A DNA stretch of 64,000 bases, taken from positions 25,912 through 89,911 of the forward strand of contig JAFRKN010000003.1 of NCBI GenBank assembly GCA_017431725.1, given 5' to 3'. The position numbers were made by a program, and so were the translations under genes. This document shows positions 11,559-42,150 of the stretch, in pieces. The notes beneath the pieces were generated by a model. It was not told the DNA's origin, made no database searches, and worked only from the letters and a program-made list of their open reading frames with translations. This DNA comes from Candidatus Saccharimonadota bacterium. Lineage in GTDB: Bacteria; Patescibacteriota; Saccharimonadia; Saccharimonadales; Saccharimonadaceae. The stretch's first letter is position 1, and the number at the start of each line of letters is the position of its first letter.

Positions 11559-11700
11559 TGGCTGGGGATGAGGGATTCGATTCGAAGAACGAGTCCTGCT
11601 TTTTGTGCATGCTCGTTAGAGCATGGCTGGGGATGAGGGATTCGACCGGAGCGTCAGCGACGGACGAGTCCTGCTTTTTGATGTTTTTGTGAAACAAAAA
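11559..11700 (-). repeat. Two exact 22-nt copies of the tRNA-Gln 3' end separated by motif-bearing units
   Basis: TGGCTGGGGATGAGGGATTCGA occurs at 11559-11580, 11624-11645 and 11701-11722. Both intervening units contain ACGAGTCCTGCTTTTTG. Confidence 0.95.
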
Positions 11701-11775
11701 TGGCTGGGGATGAGGGATTCGAACCCCCGAATGTCGGGACCAGAACCCGATGCCTTACCACTTGGCGAATCCCCA
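11701..11775 (-). tRNA. tRNA-Gln(CTG)
   Basis: Cloverleaf TGGGGAT/ATCCCCA, anticodon arm TCGGG-TTCTGGT-CCCGA, GTTCGAATC T-loop, encoded CCA. Confidence 0.97.
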
Positions 11776-11800
11776 ACGCGGAAATAATTATACCACAAGT

Positions 11801-14800
11801 CTATTCACTCCGCAACGCCTCAACTGGGTCTTTCTTTGAGGCGGCTCGAGCCGGGATTAAACCACCAATTAGTGTGAGTACAATCGATAATCCAACCAAA
11901 AACAAAGCCATTTTGGGATCCAACACAGCTGAAAGTGGTATATCGCCCGTAAAATAATGTAGAATCATATTTATTGGTGGAATTAAAAGATACGATATTC
12001 CTACACCAAATATTCCAGACAAAAAGCCAATAATAGTCGTTTCTGCATTAAAAATCGACGAAATATTATGTTTGCTTGCTCCAATTGCGCGTAAAATTCC
12101 GATTTCTTTAGTCCTTTCGTATACCGAAATATAAGTAATCACGCCAATCATAATTGACGAAACAACCAAAGAAATCGAAACAAACGCTATTAATACATAC
12201 GAGACTGCATCAACAATTGTTTTTACGGAAGACATTAAAACTCCCGTCGTATCAGTATAATCAATCACTTTATCTTCTTCTCCAAGCGAACGCATCGAAT
12301 CATTATAGCCATCTAGAAAATCAATAAATTTTGTTTTTCCATCAAAACTCGAAAAATAGAATGACAATTGCGTTGGATCGTTTAAATCCTGATATCCTAA
12401 AGCCGAAAGATTAGTCGCAAGCGTCGTCTTCTTCTTATTAAACATTGCCGTTACTACCCTCGAGAGTTCCTCTTCCGAAAAATTTAAACGAAAAGCCCCG
12501 ATAATTGCGTCTTGGTCTACATGAAAAGCTGAGGCAAAACTATTTGACAAATATGAAGTTAATTCTCCCACTTTCGTCAAAATTTCCTTTTTCATGATTA
12601 TTTCAGTTAGCGGTACCGCTATTGCATCAAAAGCCGTATTAAATTTGATTGAATCAAGTAGAGTTTCTGTCACCTGATTATAAATCATTGGCACAATCGT
12701 TATATCACTAGTTTCTACATCAAAACTAGGATTCATTGTTTGCGTCATTGCATAAGCCTGGATATAAGTTTCCAAAGTTCCAGATAATAATCCCTGATAA
12801 AGCATTTGTGCTTGCTCTGTTGGCAGATAATACAACATCTCAAATTCGCTGAAATCTTGCCGATTCAAAAACTCTGTCACTATTCCAGAAATTTCAGTTT
12901 TTTTGAAAGCCCCCTTTATTATCAACTCATTTTTCAAATTTTCTATCATAGTTTTGTACTTATCAACCAACTCATCTCTAATTGGCGATATATCAGCAGT
13001 AATATCATTGGCAATTTGGTTAATATATTCAGTGGTTTTTGCGGTAATTGTATTTTGGTTTATTGTCGTCCCGAAAGCTCTTGATAACGCCGCCTCATCT
13101 ATTGATACTAAATCCGAAAAGGCAAAATTAAAATTCTTTCCTTCTTCATCAAATCTTTTGCCAGAAAAAATATCTACTTCTGTATTATCGAGTTGCTTTT
13201 GAACAATTTCAGATTGGCCTGATTTTTCGATAATATGTTGAACCAATGAAGGTAAATATGCTATTCCACTTCCCGCTGATAGCATTTCTGAATTCATTAC
13301 CGCAACCCCCACGACGTGGAGTTTTTCTGCTTCATTATAAATAGAACGCATATAATTTTCATCTTCAGACATATTTTCATATATTTCATATTTCGTGTTG
13401 TATTTATATGTTTTAGTTGCGGGAATTAACCTTAAATCTACGTCTAGAAGATCCTCGTAAGTAAGTTCCAAAGGCTCATTATCAATTGCAACCTTTTCCC
13501 CACTCATAATTTTTGAGACAATCTCATTTAATTCATTAGAATTATGAAAGCCTAAAGAATATGTCAAAAGCTCCGAAATCTCATTCTTATTACTTAACAC
13601 GACCAACATTTCATTATATTTTTCTGGGTATCGCCCCGCTAAAATTTCGGTATCATTTTTTAAATTTTCAGATTCATATTGCCGAAATACCGAAGTCATA
13701 GTTGAATAATTTCTTAGTAGTGAAGTTTCCCCAATTAACGAAGTGAACATATTGCTCGGATTCATCTTCGCAATTTTTCCAGTCACATCCTCAGTATATA
13801 TTACCGGATCCACATTATATTCATATTCCATTATTCTGATATCATCTTGAAGATTTTGCCCGTGTATCTTTAAATATTTCGTAAAACTCGGCAAATCATT
13901 ATTCGAAACAGCTCCAAGCGTAGAAGTTAATATTTGATTTTCATGCAATTTATCATCATCATTTTTGCTATTTACATTGCCAGTTAAACTCAGTAAAATA
14001 CCAGAAACATCAGCTGATTCTTTTTGTAAAGCTAATGGATATGATCCCAAAGTATCTTGTTCTATTTTGTCAATATAATTTTGGAATCCAGTCGAAACTG
14101 CACTAATTAAAGCTATACCGATAATCCCAATCGACCCCGCCAAAGCTACTAAAATTGTTCGAGTCTTTTTTGTTAGTAGATTTTTGAGAGACAACAATAA
14201 GGCTGTCATAAATGACATTTTTGTTTTTTTGCTTTTGTTTTTTGCTTCAATTAAATCTAAATCAGTTTTAATTTTCCCGTCATAAGAGTTGGAGTCCGCT
14301 GTGATTTTCCCATCCTTAAGGTTTATAATGCGCGTTGCATATTTTTCTGCCAATTCCGGATTATGTGTTACCATTATCACCAACTTATTGCTAGCAATTT
14401 GCTTCAGTAATTTCATCACTTGTGTTGAGGTTTCTGAATCTAATGCTCCTGTCGGCTCATCCGCCAATAAAATATCCGGATCGTTTATTAATGCTCGCGC
14501 AATCGCCACGCGTTGCATCTGCCCACCCGACAATTGTGATGGTAGCTTATTTATATGTTCCTCCAAACCAACTTTCTTTAATACTTTCTTAGCACGACGC
14601 ACTGACTCACGTTTAGAAATACCCGAAAGCGTTAAAGCTAACTTTACATTGTTGAGAACTGTCTGATGCGGAATTAAATTATAAGATTGAAAAACAAATC
14701 CAATTCGATGGTTACGATAGGCATCCCAGTCTTTATCGCGAAATTTTTCGGTTGATTTTTCATTAATAATCAAATTACCAGAATCATAATGATCAAGCCC

Positions 14801-14956
14801 ACCGATGATGTTAAGGAGTGTGGTTTTTCCGGAACCCGAAGGACCCAAGATTGCCGCAAATTCTGAAATTGGAAAATTAATCGACACTTTATCAAGAACG
14901 GTCCGTCGAACTCCACCAGTCACATAGACCTTTGTTACGCCCCTTAACTCCAGCAT
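11801..14956 (-). CDS. MacB/FtsX-type ABC transporter, fused ATPase and permease
   Basis: GPSGSGKTT, LSGGQMQR, LADEPTGALD, ERTKEIGILRAIGA. Confidence 0.93.
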   Translation of the reverse strand: MLELRGVTKVYVTGGVRRTVLDKVSINFPISEFAAILGPSGSGKTTLLNIIGGLDHYDSGNLIINEKSTEKFRDKDWDAYRNHRIGFVFQSYNLIPHQTVLNNVKLALTLSGISKRESVRRAKKVLKKVGLEEHINKLPSQLSGGQMQRVAIARALINDPDILLADEPTGALDSETSTQVMKLLKQIASNKLVIMVTHNPELAEKYATRIINLKDGKITADSNSYDGKIKTDLDLIEAKNKSKKTKMSFMTALLLSLKNLLTKKTRTILVALAGSIGIIGIALISAVSTGFQNYIDKIEQDTLGSYPLALQKESADVSGILLSLTGNVNSKNDDDKLHENQILTSTLGAVSNNDLPSFTKYLKIHGQNLQDDIRIMEYEYNVDPVIYTEDVTGKIAKMNPSNMFTSLIGETSLLRNYSTMTSVFRQYESENLKNDTEILAGRYPEKYNEMLVVLSNKNEISELLTYSLGFHNSNELNEIVSKIMSGEKVAIDNEPLELTYEDLLDVDLRLIPATKTYKYNTKYEIYENMSEDENYMRSIYNEAEKLHVVGVAVMNSEMLSAGSGIAYLPSLVQHIIEKSGQSEIVQKQLDNTEVDIFSGKRFDEEGKNFNFAFSDLVSIDEAALSRAFGTTINQNTITAKTTEYINQIANDITADISPIRDELVDKYKTMIENLKNELIIKGAFKKTEISGIVTEFLNRQDFSEFEMLYYLPTEQAQMLYQGLLSGTLETYIQAYAMTQTMNPSFDVETSDITIVPMIYNQVTETLLDSIKFNTAFDAIAVPLTEIIMKKEILTKVGELTSYLSNSFASAFHVDQDAIIGAFRLNFSEEELSRVVTAMFNKKKTTLATNLSALGYQDLNDPTQLSFYFSSFDGKTKFIDFLDGYNDSMRSLGEEDKVIDYTDTTGVLMSSVKTIVDAVSYVLIAFVSISLVVSSIMIGVITYISVYERTKEIGILRAIGASKHNISSIFNAETTIIGFLSGIFGVGISYLLIPPINMILHYFTGDIPLSAVLDPKMALFLVGLSIVLTLIGGLIPARAASKKDPVEALRSE

Positions 14957-15015
14957 ATATTTATATGGTAACACATTCTGAAGAGATTTACTAGATTTCA
15001 GGTTATAATATATAT

Positions 15016-15774
15016 ATGGATAATAAAGTCCTCGACCGTATTGAGAAAAAATATTTAATTACTAAGTCTCAGAAAAGAAATCTTCTGAAAATTATCAGGA
15101 GAAATATGAAAAGAGACAGTTATTTTAAGTCCGAAGTGATTAATTTATATTTTGATACTGATAATTATGATTTAATTATTCAATCGATTGACCAGCCAAT
15201 TTTTAAAGAAAAATTACGTGCTCGTTCTTATTCCGGATATGATCGAGTTTTTCTCGAAATCAAAACTAAACTACGTGGAAAAGAAATAAATCCTGGTTTT
15301 AAACGTCGGGTAATGATTAAACACCAAGATTTTGAAGAACTTATTGCCAAAAAACATACAGTTCTCACTCTAGCCGCTCGTTCAATCGAGACCAAAAATG
15401 ATCTCCAAATTGCTAAAGAGGTTGATTATCTCATTGCAAAATTTCATTTAAAACCTAAAATTTTAGTCATATATAATCGCGAGAGTTATCAAGGCGAGAA
15501 TAAGCTTCGTATTACTTTTGATGAAAATCTAAAATATCGTGATGATAATTTGAGCTTATTTAAAGGAAAAGATGATAAAATTTATTTTAAGGGCAAACAA
15601 AATATTATTATGGAGATCAAAGCACACGGAGTTTTGCCTCTATGGCTGGTAAAAATTTTATCAGAAAACAAAGTTTATCCAGAGCAATTTAGCAAAGTTG
15701 GTAGAATATTCGAACGGATAATACTCGAAAAAAACACCGCTCGAATACATCACAGAAAGGAAAAACATGTTTAA
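15016..15774 (+). CDS. VTC (polyphosphate polymerase-like, CYTH-fold) domain protein
   Basis: RIEKKY, YFDT, EKLRARSY, FLEIK, RITFD, MEIK, FSK motifs. Confidence 0.88.
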   Translation: MDNKVLDRIEKKYLITKSQKRNLLKIIRRNMKRDSYFKSEVINLYFDTDNYDLIIQSIDQPIFKEKLRARSYSGYDRVFLEIKTKLRGKEINPGFKRRVMIKHQDFEELIAKKHTVLTLAARSIETKNDLQIAKEVDYLIAKFHLKPKILVIYNRESYQGENKLRITFDENLKYRDDNLSLFKGKDDKIYFKGKQNIIMEIKAHGVLPLWLVKILSENKVYPEQFSKVGRIFERIILEKNTARIHHRKEKHV

Positions 15775-16438
15775 TACTATTTTTAATTCAACTGCAGTTG
15801 GGCTTGATATTTCGACTGCTTTAATTGCTGCCGGCGTTGCGCTAGGGCTTGGTCTTATTATTGCGATCACCCACATGACAACCTCACAAACCAGCAAAAG
15901 TTTTTTAGTCACTCTTGCAATCTTACCACTACTCGTCATGGCAGTGATGATTATGATAAATGGCAATCTTGGCACTTCAATCGCTATTTTAGGCGCTTTT
16001 TCTCTTATTCGGTTTCGTTCGATTCAGGGCAATGCAAAAGAACTCCTTAGCATCTTCTTTGCTATGATGATTGGGCTTGCCTGTGGTATGGGGCACGTTC
16101 TTTTCGGTACCGTTATCACTGCTATTGCCGTTATTGCTATTCTTATTTTTTCCTATACGAATTTTCTCGAACCCAACAAAAAGCAACGTATTTTAAAAAT
16201 TGTTATTCCCGAAGATTTAGATTACGAAACAGTTTTTGATGACATTTTTAAAAAATATACTTCTAAGGCTGAGCTCGTTCGCATGAAAACTGTCAACATG
16301 GGTAGTCTCTATAAATTAACTTACAATATTACCATGAAACATGGTGTCAAAGAGAAAGATTTTCTAGACGAAATTCGTGTCAAAAATTGTAATTTAAAAG
16401 TTCTTCTTTCGCATCCTTGTCTCGAAGAGGAAATATAA
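15767..16438 (+). CDS. DUF4956 family membrane protein
   Basis: GAFSLIRFRS, GLACGMG; overlaps the VTC gene by 8 nt. Confidence 0.88.
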   Translation: MFNTIFNSTAVGLDISTALIAAGVALGLGLIIAITHMTTSQTSKSFLVTLAILPLLVMAVMIMINGNLGTSIAILGAFSLIRFRSIQGNAKELLSIFFAMMIGLACGMGHVLFGTVITAIAVIAILIFSYTNFLEPNKKQRILKIVIPEDLDYETVFDDIFKKYTSKAELVRMKTVNMGSLYKLTYNITMKHGVKEKDFLDEIRVKNCNLKVLLSHPCLEEEI

Positions 16439-18051
16439 TGAAAAATCATCAAAATTTATCAATTGGGGTAAAAAAATCTCAAAAAAACTTTTTCTGCCAA
16501 GAAAACTTAAAGTGGTTTTTGCTAATATTTATTACTATTATTATCTTATTAATTACAATTTTTATAAATATCAATAATACCAAAGACGACGCTACTATCA
16601 TTACTGGCACTATTGAGACCGACAACGGAAATCAAAAAATTGATTGGGGTCGTTATCCAACTCATAATATTACATTATCGGAATCGCTCACTATTACTGA
16701 AGCCGGAACTTATCATTTAATTGGAGAGCTTGAAGACGGGCTCATCACGGTCAATATAGAAAATACCGTTGCCAGATTAATTCTAGATAATGTAAAAATC
16801 AAAAATTCTTCTGGTCCTGCAATTCTTTGTAGCGCTGGCGAAGATTTAGTAATTGAATTAGTTGGCGAAAATACATTAGAGGATGGCGTGTTATATGCGG
16901 CCGATTATGCCGAAGACGTTACGGGCGTTGTTTATTCCAAAGCCGATCTAAGTTTTAGCGGTAATGGCAATCTCAATATTACCGCAAATCATCAAGATGC
17001 CATAATTAGCAAAGATGACCTCAAATTTAGCAGTGGTAATTATATTATCAATGCTATTGACGATGGTATACGCGGCAAAGACTCAGTTTATATCGTTGCT
17101 GGAAATTTTGATATTAAATCTGGCGGTGACGCCATTAAATCTACTAATGAGACAGATGCCAAGAAAGGTTTTATTGTTATTGAAAACGGAAAATTCAATA
17201 TTGATAGTTCAATGAAAGGCATTGCCGCCGTTAATAGTATTTTAATTTATAATGGGGATTTCAACATTTTGTCTTCTGACGATTCAATCCATTCAAATAA
17301 TTACGTCGGTATAATTAATGGTAGTCTAAATTTAAATTCTGGTGATGATGGGATACATGCTGACCGTGAATTAATTATAGATGGGGGAAACATTGTTGTT
17401 GAAAAAGCTTACGAAGGGTTAGAATCGCAAGCTATTACTATTAATAACGGGGCTATTAGCCTTTATACTTCTGATGATGGCATTAATGCAGGCGGTGGCG
17501 CAGATTTATCTTCTAATAATAAAATGGATATATTTTCCGCAGATGAAAATTGCGTCATAAACATTAATGGTGGGAATCTTTATATTGATTCTTCTGGCGA
17601 TGGTATTGATTCTAACGGATTCTTATATTTTAATGGGGGCACTACTGTGATAGATGGCCCTACTAATAATGGCAATGGGGCGCTCGATGCCGGTCTTGGT
17701 ATCACAACGAACGGTGGTGAAGTCATTGCGGTGGGTGCTAGCGGAATGGCAGAAGATTTGGGCTCTTCTTCATCAATTTATAGTATTAGTAGCTTTTTCC
17801 AAAACACTCAAAAAGCCGGTACTAAAATAGAAATTAAAGATTCATATAATAATATTCTTATATCCCATATTTCGGCTAAGACTTTTAGTCATTTAGCGGC
17901 TGGATCTGATTCTTTTATACCTGGTATGAGCTATAAAATTTTTATTGACGACAAAGAATATACTTCATTTTCCATTAAAGATACCGTTACTATTATTGGA
18001 AATGTCCGTTCAAATCAAATGATGCCTCAAGCCCAACAAAATCATAGATAA
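16438..18051 (+). CDS. Membrane-anchored carbohydrate-binding beta-helix protein (DUF4353-like)
   Basis: N-terminal TM, TITEAGTYHL, repeated DDGIH/DDGIN/GDGIDSNG units; TAATG stop-start coupling. Confidence 0.8.
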   Translation: MKNHQNLSIGVKKSQKNFFCQENLKWFLLIFITIIILLITIFININNTKDDATIITGTIETDNGNQKIDWGRYPTHNITLSESLTITEAGTYHLIGELEDGLITVNIENTVARLILDNVKIKNSSGPAILCSAGEDLVIELVGENTLEDGVLYAADYAEDVTGVVYSKADLSFSGNGNLNITANHQDAIISKDDLKFSSGNYIINAIDDGIRGKDSVYIVAGNFDIKSGGDAIKSTNETDAKKGFIVIENGKFNIDSSMKGIAAVNSILIYNGDFNILSSDDSIHSNNYVGIINGSLNLNSGDDGIHADRELIIDGGNIVVEKAYEGLESQAITINNGAISLYTSDDGINAGGGADLSSNNKMDIFSADENCVININGGNLYIDSSGDGIDSNGFLYFNGGTTVIDGPTNNGNGALDAGLGITTNGGEVIAVGASGMAEDLGSSSSIYSISSFFQNTQKAGTKIEIKDSYNNILISHISAKTFSHLAAGSDSFIPGMSYKIFIDDKEYTSFSIKDTVTIIGNVRSNQMMPQAQQNHR

Positions 18052-18091
18052 ACTTTTTTTCTTATGCTATAATAAGCAAAAAGGAGGTTAT

Positions 18092-19444
18092 GTGCAATTA
18101 ATTGTCATTTTACTTATTACCGTGTCGGTTCTTACCCTACTATCGGGTGTTACTGTTTTTCTCGGTTCATCAAAAGGAGATCGTTTACGTTCAGCCTGGT
18201 TTTTTATTGCCACTATTTTTGCCGCAATTTGGACAGTATCTATTTCAATGTTTTTAATTGCCGAACCAAGCTGGAAAGCATCAATCGATTTGCCAGTACG
18301 TTGGACCTACCTCAGCTCAATTTTTATCGATATTGCCTTGCTCGGCTATATTAGTTGGAGAGAAAAATATGGCAAAATTGTCACACTGGCTTTTCTCATC
18401 GGTGGGATTATTTTAAGCGCCGTCTTTATTAATAATCCTGGCCTCCTTTATACTGATGTCATTTTGAGTAATACTGGTAACAGTCTCGTTACAAACATCG
18501 GCCCATTTTATTTTATTTATATAACCTTTTTCTGCCTTTTGGTCCCAGCAGTTATTCTTACATTATTAAAACAAATTATTAAGCCAGTTTCAAAGAAAAA
18601 ACGTGGTGGCGACCTTGTTCTTCTTATCGGCTTCGCTATTTCTGGTACTATGTCATTAATTTTTTGTTTAATTCTGCCGCTTTGGCGTTGGGATTTAGTT
18701 TGGTTGGGCCCCCTCGCCGTCTCTACCACCATCATTGCCTTTTATTATTCGATTTTACGCTACCGCGTGTTAAACCTTTCTTCAATTTGGCTCAAAATCT
18801 TATCCTATATTGTTATTATGGCTTCGTCGGCAGTTATTTATATGGTCATCTTTTCTATCATATTTGCCCTTCTATTTCGTGGTTCAACGCCATCAACAGA
18901 AGTCATCATCTTAAACTTTATTATGATTTTGATAGTATTGCTACTATTCCCTGCCATGAATGAATTAAATATGTTTGTAAATTCGCTCATATCTACCCAA
19001 GATGTTGATATGATCTATATTATTAAAAAATTAAATAAATTTACTCCTCGTACTAATTCCGATCTCAAAGAATTAGCCGACTTTCTTGCTGATCATATGC
19101 ATTTTGAATCGGTCAACTTCTTGATTGATAAACAAATTTATGGCTCAATCAAAAATAAGATCACTTCGGATGAAGTTGAAATTATTTCTAGGCTAGGTGA
19201 CCCCGAAAATGGCATTTGGCAAAATATTGACGAAAACGACGAAAAATGGCTAAGGCACGACTTTTCTGCTATTGCTGCGCTAAGAGATTCCAATGGTCAA
19301 ACTTTTGGGCAAATGATTATTGGCAAGCCAATTGGAAAAATTAATTTTAATCAACGCGACATTATTCAGATCGAATCCGCAATTAATATGGTTGCAACAA
19401 CTATCAGTTCTAGAAATCATCCTAAAAGAACAAAGAGGTCTTAA
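18092..19444 (+). CDS. 7TM-type sensor membrane protein with GAF-like C-terminus and no kinase domain
   Basis: About 9 TM segments ending YSILRYRV; no H-box or N/G boxes before the stop; GTG start with AGGAGG SD and own -10. Confidence 0.55.
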   Translation: MQLIVILLITVSVLTLLSGVTVFLGSSKGDRLRSAWFFIATIFAAIWTVSISMFLIAEPSWKASIDLPVRWTYLSSIFIDIALLGYISWREKYGKIVTLAFLIGGIILSAVFINNPGLLYTDVILSNTGNSLVTNIGPFYFIYITFFCLLVPAVILTLLKQIIKPVSKKKRGGDLVLLIGFAISGTMSLIFCLILPLWRWDLVWLGPLAVSTTIIAFYYSILRYRVLNLSSIWLKILSYIVIMASSAVIYMVIFSIIFALLFRGSTPSTEVIILNFIMILIVLLLFPAMNELNMFVNSLISTQDVDMIYIIKKLNKFTPRTNSDLKELADFLADHMHFESVNFLIDKQIYGSIKNKITSDEVEIISRLGDPENGIWQNIDENDEKWLRHDFSAIAALRDSNGQTFGQMIIGKPIGKINFNQRDIIQIESAINMVATTISSRNHPKRTKRS

Positions 19445-19445
19445 A

Positions 19446-22749: not shown

Positions 22750-22790
22750 ATTATTAATTATAACACATCAAGATATGATATAATGTATTC

Positions 22791-26324: not shown

Positions 26325-26400
26325 TGGCAGGGGTGGCAAGACTTGAACTCGCGACACCTGGTTTTGGAGACCAGTGCTCTACCAACTGAGCTACACCCCT
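26325..26400 (-). tRNA. tRNA-Trp(CCA)
   Basis: AGGGGTG/CACCCCT acceptor, CTGGT-CTCCAAA-ACCAG anticodon arm, encoded CCA; no 3' duplication. Confidence 0.97.
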
Positions 26401-28903: not shown

Positions 28904-28934
28904 AGTTTTACCAAAAATAAAACTCTATTTTTTA

Positions 28935-33497: not shown

Positions 33498-33532
33498 TTT
33501 TGTTATCCGATTAAATAAAAAAATAATATTGA

Positions 33533-33676
33533 AAGTAGGACTCGCTCGAAATAGTAGCGACAACCGATGCCCTGCTTTTTAATACACTTTCGCAAGAAAG
33601 TGGTGCTGGAAGTAGGACTCGATTCGAATGAAGTGAGAACCGATGTCCTGCTTTTTAATGCACTTTCGCAAGAAAG
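33533..33676 (-). repeat. Exact 22-nt and partial 12-nt copies of the tRNA-Tyr 3' end separated by near-duplicate motif units
   Basis: TGGTGCTGGAAGTAGGACTCGA at 33601-33622 equals 33677-33698; AAGTAGGACTCG at 33533-33544. Both units contain AACCGATG(T/C)CCTGCTTTTTAAT(G/A)CACTTTCGCAAGAAAG. Confidence 0.95.
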
Positions 33677-33761
33677 TGGTGCTGGAAGTAGGACTCGAAC
33701 CTACGAAGCCCGAAGGCGAGAGATTTACAGTCTCTTGTCATTGCCACTAGACGATTCCAGC
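33677..33761 (-). tRNA. tRNA-Tyr(GTA)
   Basis: GCTGGAA/TTCCAGC acceptor, AGAGA-CTGTAAA-TCTCT anticodon arm, long variable arm, encoded CCA. Confidence 0.97.
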
Positions 33762-33827
33762 TCACTCATAATTATATGGGATTTCCACAAAAAAATCAAC
33801 TTTATTAAGCATCTTCTGATTTTTAAA

Positions 33828-34631: not shown

Positions 34632-34669
34632 ATTTAAATATTATAATAATGCGGTAGATAAATCAACCT

Positions 34670-35332
34670 TCAAATTAAATCTGCCACTAGATGAAGCTTA
34701 ATATGCCCATTATTTTCAATATTCTCATATAATTTTAGAAATTTAGGTATTTTTTTCAAAAAAACAGGTTTATTAGTAATAAAATACGATTTATAAAGCA
34801 TTTCAATCGCCGCTCCTACAACAGCAAGAGCGTAAGCCCGCACCCCGTCTTTCTTTTTTACTATTTGCTCAGCTACGTCTATCAGATCAGCTGGCTTTGC
34901 TATCATGATTTTTTTTGCTAAAGTTTTAATATTTTCATCCGCTCCAATCTCTTTGTCTATGTCAGACTTTTCTTTCATAAAATACATTGCCGTTCGGCTC
35001 AAAATTGTCGGCAATAATTTTGACGGAGCGTCCGTAATCAAAATATAATGAATTTTTTCTTTTGGTTCTTCTAAACTCTTTAAAAGCGCATTTGCTGCAA
35101 TTTCGTTTAAAAGATCCGCTGGACGTATAATCACGAAACTATCTTCTAATTGGCGCATGCTAATTTTACTCATTAAATCTCGTATTTGCTCAATCGTGAT
35201 AGAGGTCTTCGTTTCTGGGCTTATCACCAGAGCTTTTTTCATATTAAAAACTACTTCTTTTGGCATCACAAAAACTGCTGAATCAGTTTTTAGAGCAATC
35301 TTGGCTATTTCATCAATATTATTAAAAAACAC
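34670..35332 (-). CDS. DNA polymerase III delta-prime-like (HolB-like) protein
   Basis: ITIEQIRDL, AANALLKSLEEP, LLPTILSR; GTG start inferred at 35332. Confidence 0.7.
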   Translation of the reverse strand: MFFNNIDEIAKIALKTDSAVFVMPKEVVFNMKKALVISPETKTSITIEQIRDLMSKISMRQLEDSFVIIRPADLLNEIAANALLKSLEEPKEKIHYILITDAPSKLLPTILSRTAMYFMKEKSDIDKEIGADENIKTLAKKIMIAKPADLIDVAEQIVKKKDGVRAYALAVVGAAIEMLYKSYFITNKPVFLKKIPKFLKLYENIENNGHIKLHLVADLI

Positions 35333-36203
35333 TCTCAAACTCCTTTGGCAAAGTAGCCTCAAAAGTTGCCTTTTTCCCTCCTGGCAAAATAATTTCTAAT
35401 TTTTTAGCATGCAAATAAAGTCGAGGAGCGGCTTTCTTTTCCCCATAAACCGTATCACCCAAAATCGGATAACCTAAATATTTCATATGCACACGCAATT
35501 GATGAGTTCTACCTGTCGTTGGGCTTAGCTCCACCAAAGTATATTTATTATTTGATTTAATAACTTTATAAAAAGTTTCCGATTCTTTGCCATTTGGATC
35601 CACCCTAAATGTGGTCGGTCTCTTTAAATCTCTGGCAAGTGGCAAATCAATTCTGGCCTCATTTAGCTTTGGTCGCCCTTCAATGATAGCATAATAAACT
35701 TTATGTGCACTTCGATTCTGAAATTGCTTCTTTAAAAACATTTGCGCTTCTGAATTTTTTGCAAGTATGATTACGCCAGAAGTGTCTCTATCCAGTCTAT
35801 GGACCAACAGGCCATACTTTTCCAAAGTATTTTCCGGACAATACTGTCCCCTCGCCATCGACAAAAGCCCCGCCGGTTTGTTTAGAACAATCACATTTTC
35901 GTCCTCATAAATAGTCTCAGGAGTCAAATCTGCATTTTTCATAATCTTAGGTATTTTTAAATCTATTTTTACCCCACGCGTAAATTTCCGATTAGGCTTA
36001 TCTACTAATTTTCCATCTACCATCACAAAACCATATTCTATAAATTTTTGCAAAGTCGAACGATTATAACTTTTAAAAATTTCTGCCATCAAAATATCAA
36101 GTCGCACTTTTTCTTTAATTTCTTCCGTTTTATCTATTATAATATCGCCATTTATTACACGCGACATCTCTGGCTTACTAAATTTTTTCCCCGTCCTAAT
36201 CAT
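35322..36203 (-). CDS. RluA/RluD-family pseudouridine synthase
   Basis: S4-like N-terminus, LNKPAGL, HRLDRDTSG, TGRTHQLRVH, GDTVYG. Confidence 0.95.
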   Translation of the reverse strand: MIRTGKKFSKPEMSRVINGDIIIDKTEEIKEKVRLDILMAEIFKSYNRSTLQKFIEYGFVMVDGKLVDKPNRKFTRGVKIDLKIPKIMKNADLTPETIYEDENVIVLNKPAGLLSMARGQYCPENTLEKYGLLVHRLDRDTSGVIILAKNSEAQMFLKKQFQNRSAHKVYYAIIEGRPKLNEARIDLPLARDLKRPTTFRVDPNGKESETFYKVIKSNNKYTLVELSPTTGRTHQLRVHMKYLGYPILGDTVYGEKKAAPRLYLHAKKLEIILPGGKKATFEATLPKEFESVF

Positions 36204-36247
36204 ATCCCTTCATTATATCACACTTATGTTAATTTGTCAAATTATCT

Positions 36248-37258
36248 CTAGCGAAGCCCGAAAGCTTTTTGTACTTCTAATAATTTTTCGTTTGCTACAG
36301 TATTTGCATACACCTCCCCCATTTTTAATAAATGCAAGACTTCCTCATCTAAAATATTTGATGACTTTTCTTGAAAATCCGTCAGCATTTCTAAGACACT
36401 TTTTGCGACCTTTTCTTTTAATTTGCCATAACTGGTTTCGCCTGCCCATGCGGATACTACATCCTGCAGTGGGATGTCGTTTACTAATGCTTCAATCTGT
36501 AGTAAATTTGAAATACCTGGCTGATTAAACATATCAAACTTTACTTTACCCAGTGAATCAGTCGTTGCCGACATAATTTTTTTAGCTGCCCTTTCTGGCT
36601 CGTCACTAAGCATAATCTTAGAATTTTCTGCTTTTGTCGATTTGGACATTTTCTTTTCGGGGTTCAATAAATCACGAATTCTAATTCCATCCGTAACTCC
36701 CATAAATTTTACCTGGTCTGCTGTTTTAGCTGGAATGGTGAATATTTCACCAAAACGATTATTAAACCGCATCGCTAAATTACGCGTTAATTCTATATGT
36801 TGGAACTGATCCTCCCCCAAAGGAATATAAGTAGCATCATATAATAAAATATCCGCTGCCATTAAAATTGGATAATCAAAAATCCCGACATTTGAAGATT
36901 CCTGCCCCTTAGATTTTTCTTTATATTGGATCATCCGCGAAGTTTCGCCCATCGTTGCAATGCAATTTAAAATCCAACAAAGTTCCGAATGAGCCGGCAC
37001 ATAAGATTGACGATAAATATGAACATTGTCGTTTATTTTTAATCCTGCCGCCAAATAATATTTTATTGTTTTAATGGTATTTTCTTGTAAATTTCCGTCT
37101 ATTTCCGAAATAATTGAATGAAGATCTGGCACAAAAATATTTACTTGATATTCCGAAGAATGTTTATTTGCCAACCTTACCATAGGGAGAAGCGCCCCCA
37201 AATAATTACCCAATGTTAATTCTGAATTTGCCCTAATCCCAGTTAAAATCGTTTTCAT
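36248..37258 (-). CDS. trpS: Tryptophanyl-tRNA synthetase
   Basis: TLGNYLGA (HIGH-like), YPILMAADIL, GEDQFQH, KMSKS. Confidence 0.97.
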   Translation of the reverse strand: MKTILTGIRANSELTLGNYLGALLPMVRLANKHSSEYQVNIFVPDLHSIISEIDGNLQENTIKTIKYYLAAGLKINDNVHIYRQSYVPAHSELCWILNCIATMGETSRMIQYKEKSKGQESSNVGIFDYPILMAADILLYDATYIPLGEDQFQHIELTRNLAMRFNNRFGEIFTIPAKTADQVKFMGVTDGIRIRDLLNPEKKMSKSTKAENSKIMLSDEPERAAKKIMSATTDSLGKVKFDMFNQPGISNLLQIEALVNDIPLQDVVSAWAGETSYGKLKEKVAKSVLEMLTDFQEKSSNILDEEVLHLLKMGEVYANTVANEKLLEVQKAFGLR

Positions 37259-37298
37259 ACTTTTATTCTAGCACACATTATGCTAAAATAAAATTATC

Positions 37299-37375
37299 GG
37301 GGCGTTAGCTCAGCTGATTAGAGCGCTACTATGGCATAGTAGAGGTCATGAGTTTGAATCTCATACGCTCCACCA
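37299..37375 (+). tRNA. tRNA-Ala(GGC)
   Basis: GGGGCGT/ACGCTCC acceptor with G3:U70, CTACT-ATGGCAT-AGTAG anticodon arm, encoded CCA. The D-loop has GA instead of GG and the T-loop has TTTGA instead of TTCGA, consistent with a compensatory A19-U56 pair. Confidence 0.93.
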
Positions 37376-37441
37376 AAAATGAAAAGCCAAGAATTTATTC
37401 TTGGGTTTTTATTTTTTAGGAGTGGCCTGAGATTACTTCGT

Positions 37442-37460
37442 AATCTCATACGCTCCACCA
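37442..37460 (+). repeat. 19-nt duplicate of the tRNA-Ala(GGC) 3' end
   Basis: AATCTCATACGCTCCACCA at 37357-37375 and 37442-37460. Confidence 0.92.
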
Positions 37461-37533
37461 AAGTAGGAGCCGAACAAAAAGAGAGTTGCACTCTCTTTTT
37501 TGAGGCGACGCCCTTTGGTCTTTAAGACCATTT

Positions 37534-38154
37534 TTATATTGCATCTGCAAACAACACTAATCGATGCGAAGCATCGCCATTTCCATAAGAAATTCCGTAA
37601 CAGGTCATCAAAGCAATATTATATTGCGCCCCATCAAAATTCGCATTTGCAACCGATTTCATATAGCTTCCTTCTCCATTCATTTGTAAACGACCATTTG
37701 TCGTATTTTTTTCAAAAATCACTACTCTTTTTACCTGATAATTCGTTGAAAGACCATCAAGTGTAAGTGTAAAACTACTCCCCACCCCCAAATTTACTAA
37801 ACCACCAAAGACCACACTCGTATTATGCCCATACAAAAATCTATCACCGTATTTGTTTACATGATTACCAGAATCGACCGCTGTATTCGCCACATTAACA
37901 ACCGCCAAATTTCTTCCAGCAATCGCAATAGAATTTGCCGGCGCCACTGATACAACGGGCACAACCTGAGTATTAGCAGTAGTAACCGTCTGAACTCCAT
38001 TAGTTTTAGCAACTGGCCTTTCAATTTCAACAGTATTGACAGCATGAAATTCTGGTTGCCTTATTATAAATGAATCGTCTGCTGTCAAAAAATTAGGTGT
38101 GTTTATAACCCCAATTAAACTTAAAAACAGTAACAAAAAAAGGCGTTTCGCCAT
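37534..38154 (-). CDS. Sortase-like secreted protein
   Basis: Signal/TM, LYGHN, ALMTC, HRLVL; promoter TTGACA-17-TATAAT upstream. Confidence 0.65.
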   Translation of the reverse strand: MAKRLFLLLFLSLIGVINTPNFLTADDSFIIRQPEFHAVNTVEIERPVAKTNGVQTVTTANTQVVPVVSVAPANSIAIAGRNLAVVNVANTAVDSGNHVNKYGDRFLYGHNTSVVFGGLVNLGVGSSFTLTLDGLSTNYQVKRVVIFEKNTTNGRLQMNGEGSYMKSVANANFDGAQYNIALMTCYGISYGNGDASHRLVLFADAI

Positions 38155-38270
38155 CTTAATCTCCCATTTATGACCAAATTATACCCTAATTATAGCACAC
38201 TTTGCTAAAATTGTCAAGATATAGTAGACTAGTTAAAGAGGGTGGCGAACTTTGAAAGGAGGTGTTTTTA

Positions 38271-39107
38271 TTGTATGAAGTCGAAGAATTGAAGAGAGAA
38301 TATGAACGTATAATTGAACAGGAGAGGATATTATTTGGCCTTTCTGAATCATATATCCCTCTTAGTAGTGAGGAAGCCTATAATACCACGTATCAAATCC
38401 TTGAAATTGCATCGTCTGCACTAGTTTCACGCGGGTATAATCGTATTTATAATATCACAGAAGAAAATGTTACTTACGAATCTGTTTCCGCTCACACTAA
38501 TCTTGGCATCGCTTTAATCGATCGATTTTGGATGTTTATCTATGGTCCAGACGTTTTTAAGACTGTAGATGGGTATTCTTATCGAGAAGTAATGGAGGCA
38601 TTCCGCCGTCATGACTTACCAGAAAATATCATTGGCGACATTCCAGATAATGGTAGCCGTGATGATTCTAGAAAGGCTATCGCAGAACAAGATTACTGGC
38701 AGAGTTTTAGCGAATGTTCTCCAAAACGTGAAGACAAATCAGAGAAAAAAATTGCTGAACTTCTTGAGGATATGGAAAAACGTAAAACCAGAACCGGAAA
38801 TATGTTATATGCAGCCGACAAAATTTCTGCAATCATCATTACGCTTTGTTACGATTATCACGGTATTTCTCCGCAAAAATCAAAGCATGGACCTGAGAAT
38901 TCGACTAGAGATTTAAAGGCAATGACACTTTGCGATTTTTGTGAACAAGATATGTGTAAAGCAAGCGAAATGTGGACTATCGACTATTTAAAACTACGCA
39001 AAATTGTGAAATTCGACCAATACGGCTATTTTACATCAATAATGGTTATGTTGACTTTAATAGTCAATCAAAAATGGTATAACTGGCGAGAAAAAGACTA
39101 CCAATAA
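38271..39107 (+). CDS. HD-domain phosphohydrolase (YfbR/5'-deoxynucleotidase-like)
   Basis: ESVSAH, RHDLPE..IGDIP, AADK. TTG start inferred after AGGAGG; the ORF-track GTG at 38262 lies inside the SD. Confidence 0.65.
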   Translation: MYEVEELKREYERIIEQERILFGLSESYIPLSSEEAYNTTYQILEIASSALVSRGYNRIYNITEENVTYESVSAHTNLGIALIDRFWMFIYGPDVFKTVDGYSYREVMEAFRRHDLPENIIGDIPDNGSRDDSRKAIAEQDYWQSFSECSPKREDKSEKKIAELLEDMEKRKTRTGNMLYAADKISAIIITLCYDYHGISPQKSKHGPENSTRDLKAMTLCDFCEQDMCKASEMWTIDYLKLRKIVKFDQYGYFTSIMVMLTLIVNQKWYNWREKDYQ

Positions 39108-39189
39108 CACCCCCTCAAGCCCTGAGTTAATCTCGGGGCTTTTTCCTTACAGCATCACAAACCATGCTATAATATGAAAAAGGAGGAAA

Positions 39190-40155
39190 ATGAGCCAGTT
39201 TGACGAACAGTATATTAATTTATGCCGACGTATCCTAGCACATGGTGAAAAAATTACAAACTACAAAAAAGAAGATCAGCGTAAAAAATCTGTAGCCTCA
39301 GCTATTCCTGATCATGCAGCCCAAGCTTCTTCTGGCGCCAAAACTATTCGTTTACCACACCAAATTCTTCAATTCAACTTAGAAGAAGAATTTCCTATCT
39401 TAGTCTCAAAAAAAGTTGGGTTTAAAACTGCCGTTCTCGAAATTCTTTGGATTTATCAAGCCGCCTCAAACGACGTTCGCTGGCTCAAAGAACGTAACGT
39501 TAAAATTTGGGATGAGTGGGAAATTTCTGAGTCTGGCGAGTACCAGGGACGTAATCTCAACCAAATTTTTGCAGAAAAACATCCTTCCGAACCTAAAGAA
39601 AATTTTGCTCACACTATTGGCACTGCCTATGGTTGGATTGTCAAAAAATACAATCTAATCGAAAACTTAATTGAAACTCTAAAAACCAATCCAGGCAACC
39701 GTCGTATGGTGCTTTCTCTCTGGCAAAACGAATGGCTTGAAACTGCCGCACTACCTTCTTGCGTCTGGAACACAGAATGGAATTTAATTGATGGCCACCT
39801 CAATCTTTTAGTCAATTCTCGCTCATCTGATGTCCCTCTAGGCCTCCCTTTTAATATAGTTCAGTACGCGGTTCTCTGTCATCTAATCGCTCAAACTATC
39901 AATGCTAAACCCGGTCAAATGACTTTTGTGACGAACGACGCCCATATTTATGAGAATCAAATCGACGGCATTAAAGAGCAAATCTCTCGCTATGAAAAAG
40001 CAGTCAAATCAGGCACTTTACCAAAAACTCCAAAGCTCTGGCTTAATCCCGATATTCAAGATTTCTATGCTTTTGACAACTCTCGCGAATTAAAAGATAT
40101 TAAATTAGAAAATTATGAAAATCTCGGTGTTATTAAAATGCCCGTAACAGAATAG
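39190..40155 (+). CDS. thyA: Thymidylate synthase
   Basis: EILWI, IWDEW, RRMVLSLW, ALPSC, RSSDVPLGLPFN, DAHIYENQ. Confidence 0.97.
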   Translation: MSQFDEQYINLCRRILAHGEKITNYKKEDQRKKSVASAIPDHAAQASSGAKTIRLPHQILQFNLEEEFPILVSKKVGFKTAVLEILWIYQAASNDVRWLKERNVKIWDEWEISESGEYQGRNLNQIFAEKHPSEPKENFAHTIGTAYGWIVKKYNLIENLIETLKTNPGNRRMVLSLWQNEWLETAALPSCVWNTEWNLIDGHLNLLVNSRSSDVPLGLPFNIVQYAVLCHLIAQTINAKPGQMTFVTNDAHIYENQIDGIKEQISRYEKAVKSGTLPKTPKLWLNPDIQDFYAFDNSRELKDIKLENYENLGVIKMPVTE

Positions 40156-40162
40156 GAGGAAT

Positions 40163-42013
40163 ATGTTTAGCATCATTGCCGCAATAGGTAAAAATAACGA
40201 ACTAGGCAAAAACAACGGTCTAATTTTTCATATAAAAGAAGATATGAATTTTTTTCGCGAAACTACGACCGGCCACCAAGTCGTCATGGGTTATAATACC
40301 TGGAAATCTCTCCCTAGTAAACTAAAAAACCGTCACAATATCGTTATCTCGGAAAAAAAATTTACTGGCCCTGACGAAGTTATAACAGATTTAAATGCTT
40401 TCATTGCCAAAAATCAAACCTCTAAAGAAGAGATTTTTGTTATCGGTGGTGGAATGATTTATCGCGAATTTCTCCCCTATACTAAAAATCTTTATCTAAC
40501 CGAAGTTGATGCTACAGACTCTTCCGCTACAGTTTTTTTTCCAGATTTTGACCATTCTGACTATCAAAAAGAAATTATCAAAAAAGGCTCTGAGAATAAT
40601 CTAAGCTACACTTTTGTTAAATATATAAAAAAGGAGAAAAAAATGAAAGATCCAGTATTTGACCTAATTGACGAAGAAAAAAAGCGTCAAAACGAAGGTT
40701 TTGAGCTTATTCCCAGTGAAAATTATGTTTCTAAAAACGTTTTAGATGCTATGGGCTCAATTTTAACCAACAAATATTCCGAAGGTTATCCCAATTTTGA
40801 AGGAATTAAAGATTGGCCAGAAGAAAAAATCGCTACAACAATTTTACCTAATTATCGCTATTATGGTGGTCAAAAAAATATTGATCGTATCGAAAGGCTA
40901 GCCATTAGTCGCGCCTGCAAACTATTTGATGCCGATCACGCCAACGTTCAGCCTCATTCCGGCGCCAACGCTAATGAAGCAGTCTACTATGCCTGGCTAG
41001 AACCTGGCGACAAAATCCTTGCTATGAGCCTTCCAGCTGGTGGTCATTTAACCCACGGCGCCCCTGTTACACGTTCTGCCAAAATTTATCAATTTTTAGG
41101 TTATGGCGTAACCGAAGATGGCGACATAGACTACGACGAAATGGAAAAACTCGCTCTTTCAGAAGATATTAAATTAATCTTAGTCGGCTATTCGGCCTTC
41201 CCTAAAATTCCCGATTTCAAGCGCGTAGCCACTCTCCGTCAAAAAGCCGAAGCAAAATGGGGACACGAGATTTTATTGATGGCCGATATGGCCCATGTTT
41301 CTGGCCTTATCGCTGGCCAAACCCACCCCAATCCTCTGGATTATGGTTTTAATGTCATGACTACCACCACTCACAAAACCTTACGTGGTCCACGTGGCGG
41401 CATTATCTTAAGCAAGGGCATTGTTAATTCTCCTCTCAAAAAACCAGAGAGAAAATTAGCAAATATACCAACTCTGATTGATCGCGCCGTCTTTCCTGGC
41501 ACTCAAGGTGGTCCATTAGAACACATCATCGCCGCCAAAGCTGTCGCTTTTGGCGAAGCCCTAAAACCAAAGTTTAAAACTTATGCCAAAAATGTCATTA
41601 AAAATGCTAAGGTACTAGCTCAAGAATTAATCAAATTAAATTTCGTTCTACAAGGAGATGGTACTGAAAATCATTTAATTTTAATTAATATTAAAGAAAG
41701 TTTTAACATTGATGGAAAATTTTATGAAAAAGCTCTCGATCAAGTTGGCCTCACTTTGAATGCCAATTCTCTCCCTAGCGATAAAAGTGGCGCTTTTCGC
41801 CCCAGTGGTGTCAGACTTGGCACTCCCGCCATCACTACTCGCGGGCTTGGCGAGCAAGATATGGAAACCTTAGCTCTCTGGATGAAAAAAATTGCCAATA
41901 TTTGCAAAGAAGCAAAAACTGAAGAAAATCTTCCTGAATTTTCTGCCGAGCTCGAAACTATTAAAGCCGAAGTCAGAGCATTAGCGTTAAAATTTCCTGT
42001 TCCAAACAGATAA
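40163..42013 (+). CDS. folA-glyA: Dihydrofolate reductase and serine hydroxymethyltransferase in one uninterrupted ORF (internal SD and ATG at 40643)
   Basis: Residues 1-160 DHFR (IAAIGKNNELG, VVMGYNTW, FVIGGG); residue 161 onward SHMT (LIPSEN, NKYSEGYP, RYYGG, QPHSGA, TTTHKTLRGPRGG). Confidence 0.92.
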   Translation: MFSIIAAIGKNNELGKNNGLIFHIKEDMNFFRETTTGHQVVMGYNTWKSLPSKLKNRHNIVISEKKFTGPDEVITDLNAFIAKNQTSKEEIFVIGGGMIYREFLPYTKNLYLTEVDATDSSATVFFPDFDHSDYQKEIIKKGSENNLSYTFVKYIKKEKKMKDPVFDLIDEEKKRQNEGFELIPSENYVSKNVLDAMGSILTNKYSEGYPNFEGIKDWPEEKIATTILPNYRYYGGQKNIDRIERLAISRACKLFDADHANVQPHSGANANEAVYYAWLEPGDKILAMSLPAGGHLTHGAPVTRSAKIYQFLGYGVTEDGDIDYDEMEKLALSEDIKLILVGYSAFPKIPDFKRVATLRQKAEAKWGHEILLMADMAHVSGLIAGQTHPNPLDYGFNVMTTTTHKTLRGPRGGIILSKGIVNSPLKKPERKLANIPTLIDRAVFPGTQGGPLEHIIAAKAVAFGEALKPKFKTYAKNVIKNAKVLAQELIKLNFVLQGDGTENHLILINIKESFNIDGKFYEKALDQVGLTLNANSLPSDKSGAFRPSGVRLGTPAITTRGLGEQDMETLALWMKKIANICKEAKTEENLPEFSAELETIKAEVRALALKFPVPNR

Positions 42014-42034
42014 AATATGGTATAATAAAAAGGT

Positions 42035-42110
42035 GGGGTGCTAGCTCATCTGGTAGAGCGCGACATTCGCATTGTCGAGGTGAGGAGTTCGAGTCTCCTG
42101 CACTCCACCA
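42035..42110 (+). tRNA. tRNA-Ala(CGC)
   Basis: GGGGTGC/GCACTCC acceptor, CGACA-TTCGCAT-TGTCG anticodon arm, GTTCGAGTC, encoded CCA. Confidence 0.96.
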
Positions 42111-42116
42111 ACATAG

Positions 42117-42150
42117 GAAGCGAGAACGAAAGTCTTGCTTTTTTGATGCA
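42117..42150. repeat. Copy of the tRNA-associated motif unit, inverted relative to the tRNA
   Basis: GAAGCGAGAACGAAAGTCTTGCTTTTTTGATGCA aligns with GAAGTGAGAACCGATGTCCTGCTTTTTAATGCA at 33630-33662. Confidence 0.75.

Follow-up and report, generated by a model that had tools for sequence, protein, structure and literature searches.

A stretch of 64,000 nucleotides (nt) from Candidatus Saccharimonadota bacterium, a tiny gut bacterium (Saccharibacteria), raises the question how the same short element can stand behind different transfer RNA (tRNA) genes and yet end, each time, in a copy of the 3' end of just that tRNA that lies in front of it. The whole stretch is called the window here, and the pieces in which the elements were noted range from 11,559 to 42,150. 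An initial annotation had interpreted them as a candidate new system in which a trans-acting enzyme recognizes the T-loop and copies the local tail. The observation is confirmed and is far larger than was seen at that point, and the interpretation is supported in part. The elements, called units in the following, are a Saccharibacteria-specific family of tRNA-linked repeats and consist of non-coding DNA modules. As to their origin we favour, tentatively and with slightly less than even confidence, a repeat that is copied between tRNA ends at two sequences, the TCGA of the T-loop and the terminal CCA.

The architecture of the units was derived from 15 examples that were folded and then aligned, and a covariance model was built from these 15. 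A unit is 65-82 nt long (typically about 77), which is also the spacing within arrays, and about 55 nt of this are cargo with no gene inside. On the tRNA strand it starts from the CA of the CCA with a mini-hairpin of 6-7 bp (H1), which is followed by a short linker, AAAAA, GC, a second, long hairpin (H2), and finally tRNA nt 59-76. The 5' arm of H2, a "guide" plus TCG, corresponds to tRNA nt 56-63 in reverse complement, and the 3' arm consists of CGA and the first bases of the tail copy; the direct copy spans nt 56-76, and the tail copy as a whole comprises the last 18-22 bases of the tRNA in front. The tip of H2 is formed by a conserved "plug" of about 19 nt with the consensus GATCTCGCTTCGCTCGATG, or by a shorter variant, TTCTTCGAAT. 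In the alignment of units, pairing extends to 93% of the H2 cells, as compared to 21-42% in a control in which the H2 partners were slid by 1-3 columns, and both partners have changed in 9 of 13 pairs. Near-invariant across 151 units are the A5 run, the TCG and CGA, a TCGCT, and an internal TC/TC loop.

In the window, five tRNA genes (Gln-CTG, Trp, Tyr, Ala-GGC, Ala-CGC) were found by ARAGORN where the initial annotation had located them; sequences of minus-strand features are given as read on the tRNA strand. The motif AAAAAGCAGGRC, which had been noticed in four units at tRNA-Gln and tRNA-Tyr, occurs in four exact copies and one copy with a single mismatch, a total of five that was reached in 0 of 100 shuffles; every copy lies at most 60 nt from a tRNA 3' end, and the exact 12-mer AAAAAGCAGGAC is confined to units in the whole genome of 752 kb. 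The first array is hosted by tRNA-Gln(CTG) (11701..11775, minus strand; ARAGORN and Rfam tRNA), which has the T-loop TTCGA and an encoded CCA. Its unit 1 (11624..11700, minus) is composed of the H1 TTTTTG-TTTCA-CAAAAA, A5-GC, an H2 with the long plug, and an exact 22-nt copy of the tail, TCGAATCCCTCATCCCCAGCCA (covariance model E=1.4e-12). Unit 2 (11559..11623, minus; E=6.5e-9) has the H1 TGCTC-TAAC-GAGCA and A5-GC, and it carries the short inner variant, but it closes with an exact 22-nt tail as well. The two units belong to different subfamilies, and the Gln array is thus not a simple tandem duplication. It is closed by an intrinsic terminator (11527..11558, minus) that was read from the sequence as GGCGCCAGAGTGGCG plus a T-run; this palindrome was called on the plus strand only by a scan. 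The second array follows tRNA-Tyr(GTA) (33677..33761, minus; ARAGORN and Rfam), which is the commonest host across the genus. Tyr unit 1 (33601..33676, minus; E=2.6e-16) has the H1 CTTTC-TTGC-GAAAG, the 12-mer, H2, and an exact tail, and the distal unit 2 (33524..33600, minus; E=4.4e-13) has the same H1, the guide GGGC, and a tail that decays past GTCCTACTT. Also the junctions are as had been described, with TTCGAATCGA in Gln unit 2 and Tyr unit 1, TTCGAGCGA in Tyr unit 2, and CCGGTCGA in Gln unit 1. The Tyr array was found base-identical in two independent ENA metagenome assemblies of the same strain, one of which also read across the Gln array, and its distal part is overlapped by a Logan contig, which means that the arrays are real and not assembly faults.

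That the tail is local while the cargo is conserved had been the central claim of the initial annotation, and this is borne out across the genus. Of 77 single units, 53 agree with the respective tRNA without mismatch over the last 18 nt of the tail, and the same is true of 17 among the 19 units that come first in an array; no fewer than 18 kinds of tRNA are involved. The identity extends over 21-22 nt, back to C56 or T55 of the T-loop, and where tRNA-Tyr differs between species (CTACTTCC vs CTACCTCC), the copy follows its own tRNA. Of 121 guides, 82 are complementary at 5/5 positions to nt 59-63 of the tRNA to which they belong, and when guides were paired as a control with other tRNAs that differ at nt 59-63, only 2.7% were fully complementary; examples of guide and tRNA are GGAC/GTCC, GGGC/GCCC, GGAT/ATCC, GAGAT/ATCTC, and GAGAA/TTCTC. 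The position of the junction in the T-loop is likewise supported, as the hosts have the T-loop TTCGA in 94 of 96 arrays, compared to 23 of 48 tRNAs of this genome, and at a host with TTCAA (locus L089) the unit has TTG...CAA in place of TCG...CGA. The arrays are polar: tails of last units are decayed in 9 of 19 arrays, and the tRNA-proximal units are intact. The same inner variants recur at different tRNAs of different genomes, such as GATCTCGCTGACGCTCGATG at Ser-CGA and Val-CAC, and single arrays can mix subfamilies, as seen with the two Gln units.

Information on the edges of the units comes from junctions that lack them. Eight unit-free metagenomic tRNA-Tyr/tRNA-Thr junctions have spacers of 2-20 nt and no H1 hairpin, and H1 is therefore inserted and not a native flank; a native post-tRNA hairpin as source of H1 was accordingly rejected, also with regard to the unoccupied tRNAs of this genome, most of which have A-tract terminators. 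In 29 of 71 arrays, compared to an expectation of about 9, the flank past the last tail agrees with the 5' arm of H1 over 4 nt or more, an excess that is consistent with joining at microhomology. The repeat has a ragged right edge, which lies 0 to 10 or more nt beyond the CCA. There are also arrays that do not follow the rules. A few units carry the tail of another tRNA (loci L103, L169, L155), for example a Tyr tail behind tRNA-Thr(TGT) that is followed by tRNA-Thr(GGT), the usual neighbour of the Tyr locus, and about one tenth of the arrays are orphans with only a partial tail in front and no upstream tRNA even at E<=1; the loci listed with off-rule arrays also include L127, L135, L064, L084, and L093. 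Foreign tails and orphans suggest rearrangements between dispersed units, or insertions of larger DNA at the tail copies.

The remaining tRNA genes of the window show how far the family extends. Behind tRNA-Ala(CGC) (42035..42110, plus; ARAGORN), the inverted variant of the motif that had been noticed there is probably a weak partial copy of a unit (42118..42150, minus), inverted relative to the tRNA and without a tail, that comprises the linker, A6, GCAAGAC, and the start of the inner part. It is matched by nhmmer at model positions 18-53 with E=0.042, has a folding energy of -11.9 kcal/mol in RNAfold, and shares, in a comparison by eye, about 27 of 33 bases with the Tyr unit. The plus strand of the same positions is a hairpin followed by T6 and likely the terminator of tRNA-Ala(CGC). 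In case of tRNA-Ala(GGC) (37299..37375, plus; ARAGORN), which has the T-loop TTTGA, the claimed 3' duplication exists in the form of a 19-nt tail copy (37442-37460), but the hairpin is a different one and the motif is lacking: the module (37428..37460, plus) is preceded by a terminator and consists of the hairpin TGAGATTA-CTTCG-TAATCTCA, with whose 3' arm the tail copy begins, and it is matched neither by the covariance model nor by nhmmer. This module follows the same principle of an inverted plus a direct tail copy, yet it stands outside the unit family. Such motif-less modules of hairpin and tail were also seen at Gln(TTG) and Arg(TCG) (G000 C3:32227-32420 and C7:8690-8764, G000 being this genome and C its contigs), in a layout of a terminator, a simple hairpin made of inverted and direct nt 58/59-65, the remaining tail, and a second terminator, and they look like a second, simpler class of the same phenomenon. 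Nothing lies behind tRNA-Trp(CCA) (26325..26400, minus), just as had been reported; its T-loop is TTCAA, and that it is unoccupied is consistent with the TTCGA rule. Away from tRNA genes, the window contains two elements of about 120 bp (3693-3812 and 63175-63293) with a GC-rich interior (GGGGC...CCCGTGA.GACGGGCGCGA...) that is flanked by perfect inverted arms of about 21-23 nt, different at each site; the second of them lies in frame inside a large open reading frame (ORF), that of leucyl-tRNA synthetase according to the initial annotation. The principle of a conserved core with site-specific inverted arms is the same as in the tRNA units, but a kinship was rejected, as the sequences are not similar. 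A ribosomal protein L10 leader (Rfam RF00557; 4831-4919, minus) was found with 53.6 bits, above the gathering score.

The genome (752 kb, 18 contigs, 49 tRNAs, all with encoded CCA) has 10 units and one fragment at 7 tRNAs. The motif could have been restricted to the loci at which it was first noticed, but beyond the window there are units at Lys-TTT (one full, one partial), Ser-CGA (two, with decayed tails), Asn-GTT, and Val-GAC. The latter (G000 C12:81946-81999) has a 9-nt tail and lies between tRNA-Val(GAC) and tRNA-Lys(TTT) in a Phe-Val-Lys operon, and it must thus be transcribed with the tRNAs. The covariance model matches 68 of 151 congeneric genomes, with 239 matches in total and up to 10 per genome, and 83 congeners are without a unit. 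For mapping, 120 places were fetched, and nhmmer together with ARAGORN gave 125 arrays with 152 nhmmer matches, which come from 150 of the 239 covariance-model matches. In 102 of the 125 arrays there is a tRNA on the same strand just upstream, mostly with the array abutting its CCA, and at least 18 isoacceptors serve as hosts. Arrays have one (102), two (20), three (2), or four units (1). Some units lie inside tRNA operons, between tRNA-Tyr and tRNA-Thr. In one relative (locus L180), a segment of about 1.2 kb (about 240-1500 of the Tyr-Thr interval), which contains one ORF, separates tRNA-Thr(GGT) from the second Tyr unit, which is decayed; the corresponding spacer of other species is 0-21 nt. 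Outside the genus, an initial simple pattern search gave chance matches only. A pattern scan of one genome from each of 185,579 species gave 119 matching stretches, mostly chance matches from many phyla; nhmmer confirmed 18 of them, which come largely from ruminant guts, and among the titles listed the named records are Candidatus Saccharibacteria or Candidatus Nanosyncoccus.

The layout of the units is not without precedent, and they do not represent a new system. What had been taken for a candidate new system shares its defining arrangement with the tRNA-linked repeats (TLRs) of E. coli (PMC8144298), as was also checked at the K-12 tyrT locus. TLRs have been known since 1978 (Egan & Landy 1978; Rudd 1999) and have no known function; 22 of them lie at ten loci, with 1-5 per locus, in tRNA or rRNA operons, each has as its last 18-19 bp the 3' end of the gene that directly precedes it, and they include the 178-bp tyrT/tyrV repeats and the RtT RNA (rttR, Rfam RF00391) (PMC8144298). 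Like these, the Saccharibacteria units stand on the same strand behind tRNAs, with 1-4 units per locus and 7 loci in this genome, and they repeat the end of the preceding gene over 18-22 nt, as compared to 18-19 in E. coli. In the tyrT-tyrV region of K-12, the 19-nt tail, AATCCTTCCCCCACCACCA, is found in four further copies outside the two genes, and the RtT units are closed by GGGGAAGGAT, an inverted copy of nt 59-68 that pairs with the start of the tail and leaves CACCACCA single-stranded, which is the H2 design of the Saccharibacteria units. There are also clear differences: E. coli TLRs are about 100-180 nt and not 65-82 nt long, there is no overall sequence similarity, and the Saccharibacteria units have H1 and A5-GC in addition, contain no ORF such as tpr, belong to another phylum, use 18 or more kinds of tRNA, and follow a strict TTCGA rule. 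The RtT covariance model matches neither the window at the gathering score nor four array loci on both strands at E<=10, and as a positive control it found four RtT copies in E. coli with 133-138 bits.

Nevertheless, a core of 15-16 nt, TCGAGCG-N1-3-AGCGAGA, is common to the RtT units of E. coli and the plug of the Saccharibacteria units (e.g. G000 C12:81712). Identical core variants, with TC and CC, occur in both, and the commonest variant of the Saccharibacteria is the Rfam consensus of RtT; the core lies on the tRNA strand in E. coli and on the opposite strand in the Saccharibacteria units. It was found once in the genome, inside a unit, 25 times in array loci, and 3 times in a 3-kb region of E. 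coli (L315), where all three copies lie in RtT units; a further 945 kb of fetched loci have 5 copies, each in a Saccharibacteria unit, and about 800 kb of unrelated control DNA have none. The core contains the DNA mini-hairpin motif GCGNAGC / GCGNNAGC. It is in part a tandem of AGCGA, which leaves some room for chance, but a coincidence is considered unlikely.

Any explanation has to account for the local tail. Cut-and-paste of a pre-formed element at the T-loop would provide the recipient with the tail of the donor, and it therefore cannot keep the tail local at a new kind of tRNA. Several other routes were tried and rejected. A target duplication by staggered cuts with pre-formed ends would need a left end of the element that is complementary to every local flank, and an independent forward-inverted-forward triplication at each tRNA disagrees with the middle part (A5-GC), which is alike everywhere, and with the length, which fits an inverted tail only at Tyr. 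Cutting of TCGA in T-loops by a TaqI-type activity is not indicated by the frequency of TCGA (observed/expected 0.84, mildly rare; the avoided palindromes are GATC, GGCC, and GTAC), and it is also opposed by the TTCAA host with TTG...CAA. The tentatively favoured reading is a copy-and-paste with two junctions, at the two sequences that all hosts have in common. The copy would exit the recipient at CCA, often aided by a few extra matching bases of the flank, by which the ragged right edge would be explained; copying would then pass through H1-A5-H2 of the donor up to (T)CGA and re-enter at the TCGA of the recipient T-loop, and as nt 56-76 would be replicated twice in this way, the tail would be local. 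In the simplest account this would be template switching of replication at polymerase-stalling hairpins, for which no dedicated enzyme would be needed, but equally a trans-acting enzyme could use the same two sites and leave the same product. Afterwards, the inverted arm may be matched to the new tail either through selection for the hairpin or through quasi-palindrome correction, from which wobble-free stems would follow as well. Local gene conversion could keep the tails identical to the tRNA, 75 nt away, and arrays may grow and shrink by unequal recombination, an example of growth being four identical units at Arg-TCG in one relative, with older units being pushed distally and decaying. All of these steps are inferred from sequence, and none of them was observed.

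A number of findings weigh against this copying at TCGA and CCA. About one third of the guides are imperfect, both Gln units of the window included, and some microhomologies are long, with 10-13 nt. Unpaired positions are strongly conserved (A5 about 100%, the TC/TC internal loop about 90%, a bulged A), and conservation of the cargo is 0.71, compared to 0.57-0.63 in the flanking intergenic DNA (baseline 0.55-0.58); both suggest that a protein recognizes the units or that they have a function, and pure template switching would need neither. Two distant template switches should be rare, yet at least 18 kinds of tRNA have been reached, several of them repeatedly, and no event was caught in the act, as strains of the same species carry identical arrays in exact-protein look-ups. 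A polymorphism of arrays at the strain level, which was among the candidates considered, was rejected on the basis of the same look-ups, which returned only identical arrays. Moreover, the survey for enzymes was a crude motif (regex) scan of the ORFs of one genome.

The conserved unpaired nucleotides count in favour of units that function as RNA, which could be the case on either strand. Units may be trailers that are co-transcribed with the tRNA, in which the tail copy would be a tRNA-like signal for 3' processing and H2 would mask this copy from competing with the real acceptor/T arm. Alternatively, transcription of the other strand could give an RNA that begins with a complement of the tRNA 3' end and continues with H2 and a U5 run, and this RNA could work as an antisense terminator or as a small RNA directed against the tRNA. 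Where units lie within tRNA operons (Tyr-Thr), transcription of the sense strand is almost certain, and in E. coli the RtT/TLR RNAs are released from tRNA or rRNA transcripts, for which the repeated 3' end has been proposed as an RNase E signal (PMC8144298). The pairing statistics do not give a uniform answer. H1 stems have 855 Watson-Crick pairs, 3 G-T and 8 A-C, and in H2 overall G-T and A-C are about equally frequent; such nearly wobble-free stems are unusual for RNA under selection. The inner H2 stems, in contrast, have 23 G-T vs 5 A-C on the sense strand, which favours a function as RNA and cannot be reconciled with a reading as single-stranded DNA or antisense. Other features point to the complementary strand: this strand folds more stably in 111 of 133 units, and its loops are of the G..A type (GNA/GNNA) in 93 of 120 H1 hairpins and the majority of plugs, the loops being T..C when read on the tRNA strand; H1 loops are closed by C-G in 62 of 120 hairpins. 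The A5-GC-stem of the unit reads stem-GC-U5 on that strand, where H2 is thus followed by GC-TTTTT in the layout of an intrinsic terminator, and the inverted partial copy behind tRNA-Ala(CGC) serves as hairpin plus T6; however, the tail copy would be superfluous for a terminator. The tip of the plug on the complement is GCGAAGC, GCGTCAGC or GCGCCAGC, flanked by tandem G-A, and this is the known ultra-stable DNA mini-hairpin motif that was mentioned above. Mini-hairpins of this type melt at 70-76 C, are nuclease-resistant, pause polymerases, and are found at single-strand initiation sites (PMC13037366). Natural examples are start sites of primase or N4 polymerase in single-stranded phage or plasmid DNA (PMC13037366), and it is the motif that likens the Saccharibacteria units to them, the role as start site being known only from those examples. 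Taken together, these features suggest a structure whose role lies in single-stranded DNA or in an antisense RNA and not in the transcript of the tRNA. No antisense promoter was found, and the units match no Rfam family on either strand of four array loci at E<=10, nor in the window at the gathering score. As, in addition, more than half of the congeners (83 of 151) live without units, hosts and copy numbers vary by species, and many copies are decayed, a functional RNA appears somewhat unlikely as the explanation of the family.

The units might also be miniature att-type cassettes that are moved in trans by a tyrosine recombinase, either Xer-like or an integrase of a phage or plasmid, with crossover in the T-loop and H2 as a folded single-stranded site, like the attC of integrons or the attP of the CTX phage. 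The repeat begins in fact in the T-loop (T55 or C56) and reaches to the 3' end, as is typical of the att sites of tyrosine integrases, and a class of tRNA-targeting integrases that cross over in the T-loop was reportedly described by Williams in 2002. H2 has conserved extrahelical bases and an unpaired centre, and it resembles attC also as an imperfect hairpin of conserved structure and variable sequence, and in integrons the newest cassette likewise lies beside the entry site; units differ from integrons in that they have neither an integron integrase nor an ORF as cargo, and in that the repeated segment is the end of the neighbouring gene itself. New units are added beside the tRNA, as in the tandem accretion of islands and tycheposons (bioRxiv 10.1101/2020.12.28.424599), and the tycheposons of Prochlorococcus as well as the accretion of cis-mobilizable and integrative and conjugative elements (CIME/ICE) indeed show repeated partial tRNA 3' ends, newcomers that push older elements outward, and decayed remnants. 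Those elements, however, measure kilobases and are served by integrases, their own or others on which they depend, that are each specific for one att sequence, whereas the units have a cargo of about 55 nt that is common to many tRNAs, and neither an integrase gene nor kilobases of cargo lie between the repeats. The motif scan of all ORFs in the genome found only two Xer-like tyrosine recombinases, which are 33% identical over an aligned stretch of 165 aa. One of them (contig C3) is XerD/XerC-like with 261 bits, below the curated cut-off. The other, divergent one (G000 C8:21713-22573, 287 aa; best match XerC with 116 bits, far below the cut-off) is encoded 4.3 kb upstream of the window start, and is the only candidate for an 'orphan' recombinase in the genome. 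With 126 and 72 bits, both fall far short of the curated cut-off of 265 for the integron-integrase subfamily, the best matches being XerD and XerC, and no recombinase homologue is encoded in any fetched array locus. The bare partial tails before orphan arrays resemble attR ends of larger insertions, but in this genome island-sized elements are lacking, and so are long-range tail repeats as signs of islands. A serine-recombinase signature, an HUH...Y motif within a plausible ORF, and a TnpB-like C-terminal CxxC...CxxC were not detected in the motif scan, and of its four YxDD matches none is in the context of a reverse transcriptase. The trans-acting enzyme that the initial annotation had postulated is thus not backed by this survey, and its RNA-templated version is unsupported. 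Two specific candidates were set aside on these grounds: a reverse transcriptase that stops at m1A58 and gives an 18-nt tail, since there is no such motif in the regex scan and the identity usually reaches C56 or T55, and a guide RNA in the style of TnpB/IscB with the tail as guide, since no ORF with a matching zinc ribbon was seen in that scan. An origin from the attP of a phage or plasmid was rejected as well, as 7 pattern matches in IMG/VR viral contigs were all due to chance and Blast with units found nothing in phage and plasmid collections. What speaks most directly against att-type cassettes is again the local tail, as T-loop crossover of a pre-formed circle would bring the tail of the donor and leave a local tail at a new kind of tRNA unexplained, and also the right boundary, which varies by 0 to 10 or more nt past the CCA where a site-specific enzyme should leave a fixed one. 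Such cassettes are therefore quite unlikely. It is far less likely still that the duplications are independent scars of different conventional prophages or islands, and that the motif is a generic part of terminators. The motif-less modules at Ala(GGC), Arg(TCG), and Gln(TTG), with their order of tRNA, terminator, hairpin, tail, and terminator, do look like old attL/attR remnants, and at Ala(CGC) half of the motif, GCAAGAC, acts with a T-run as terminator. But the 152 nhmmer matches share one model of 78 positions with a covarying structure, the exact 12-mer occurs nowhere else in the genome, and the spacing is a uniform 65-82 nt, a regularity that could not come from independent deletions and that already contradicts this explanation, for which long-range tail repeats, adjacent recombinases, and viral, phage, or plasmid matches are likewise lacking.

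In view of the common core, it is conceivable, albeit unlikely, that the TLR-type repeats of Proteobacteria, Patescibacteria, and other phyla reflect one conserved process of DNA copying that targets tRNA genes. The plug around a GCGNAGC-type mini-hairpin would then enter the palindromic TCGA of the T-loop in either orientation, and a shared host factor or enzyme would write the inverted and the direct copy of the tail around it. In any case, the tRNA-linked repeats of E. coli have been without an explanation of their origin and function for more than 45 years, and the Saccharibacteria provide a family that is short, abundant (hundreds of copies in about 70 species), and so regular that explicit rules can be given, which may help to work out how such repeats arise. 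The shared core of 15-16 nt links these rules to the repeats of E. coli, with template switching, a hidden recombinase, or a small RNA as candidates for what stands behind them. For the annotation of these reduced genomes, the units are relevant as a source of tRNA-like 3' fragments, of contig breaks at repeats, and of rearrangements among tRNA loci.

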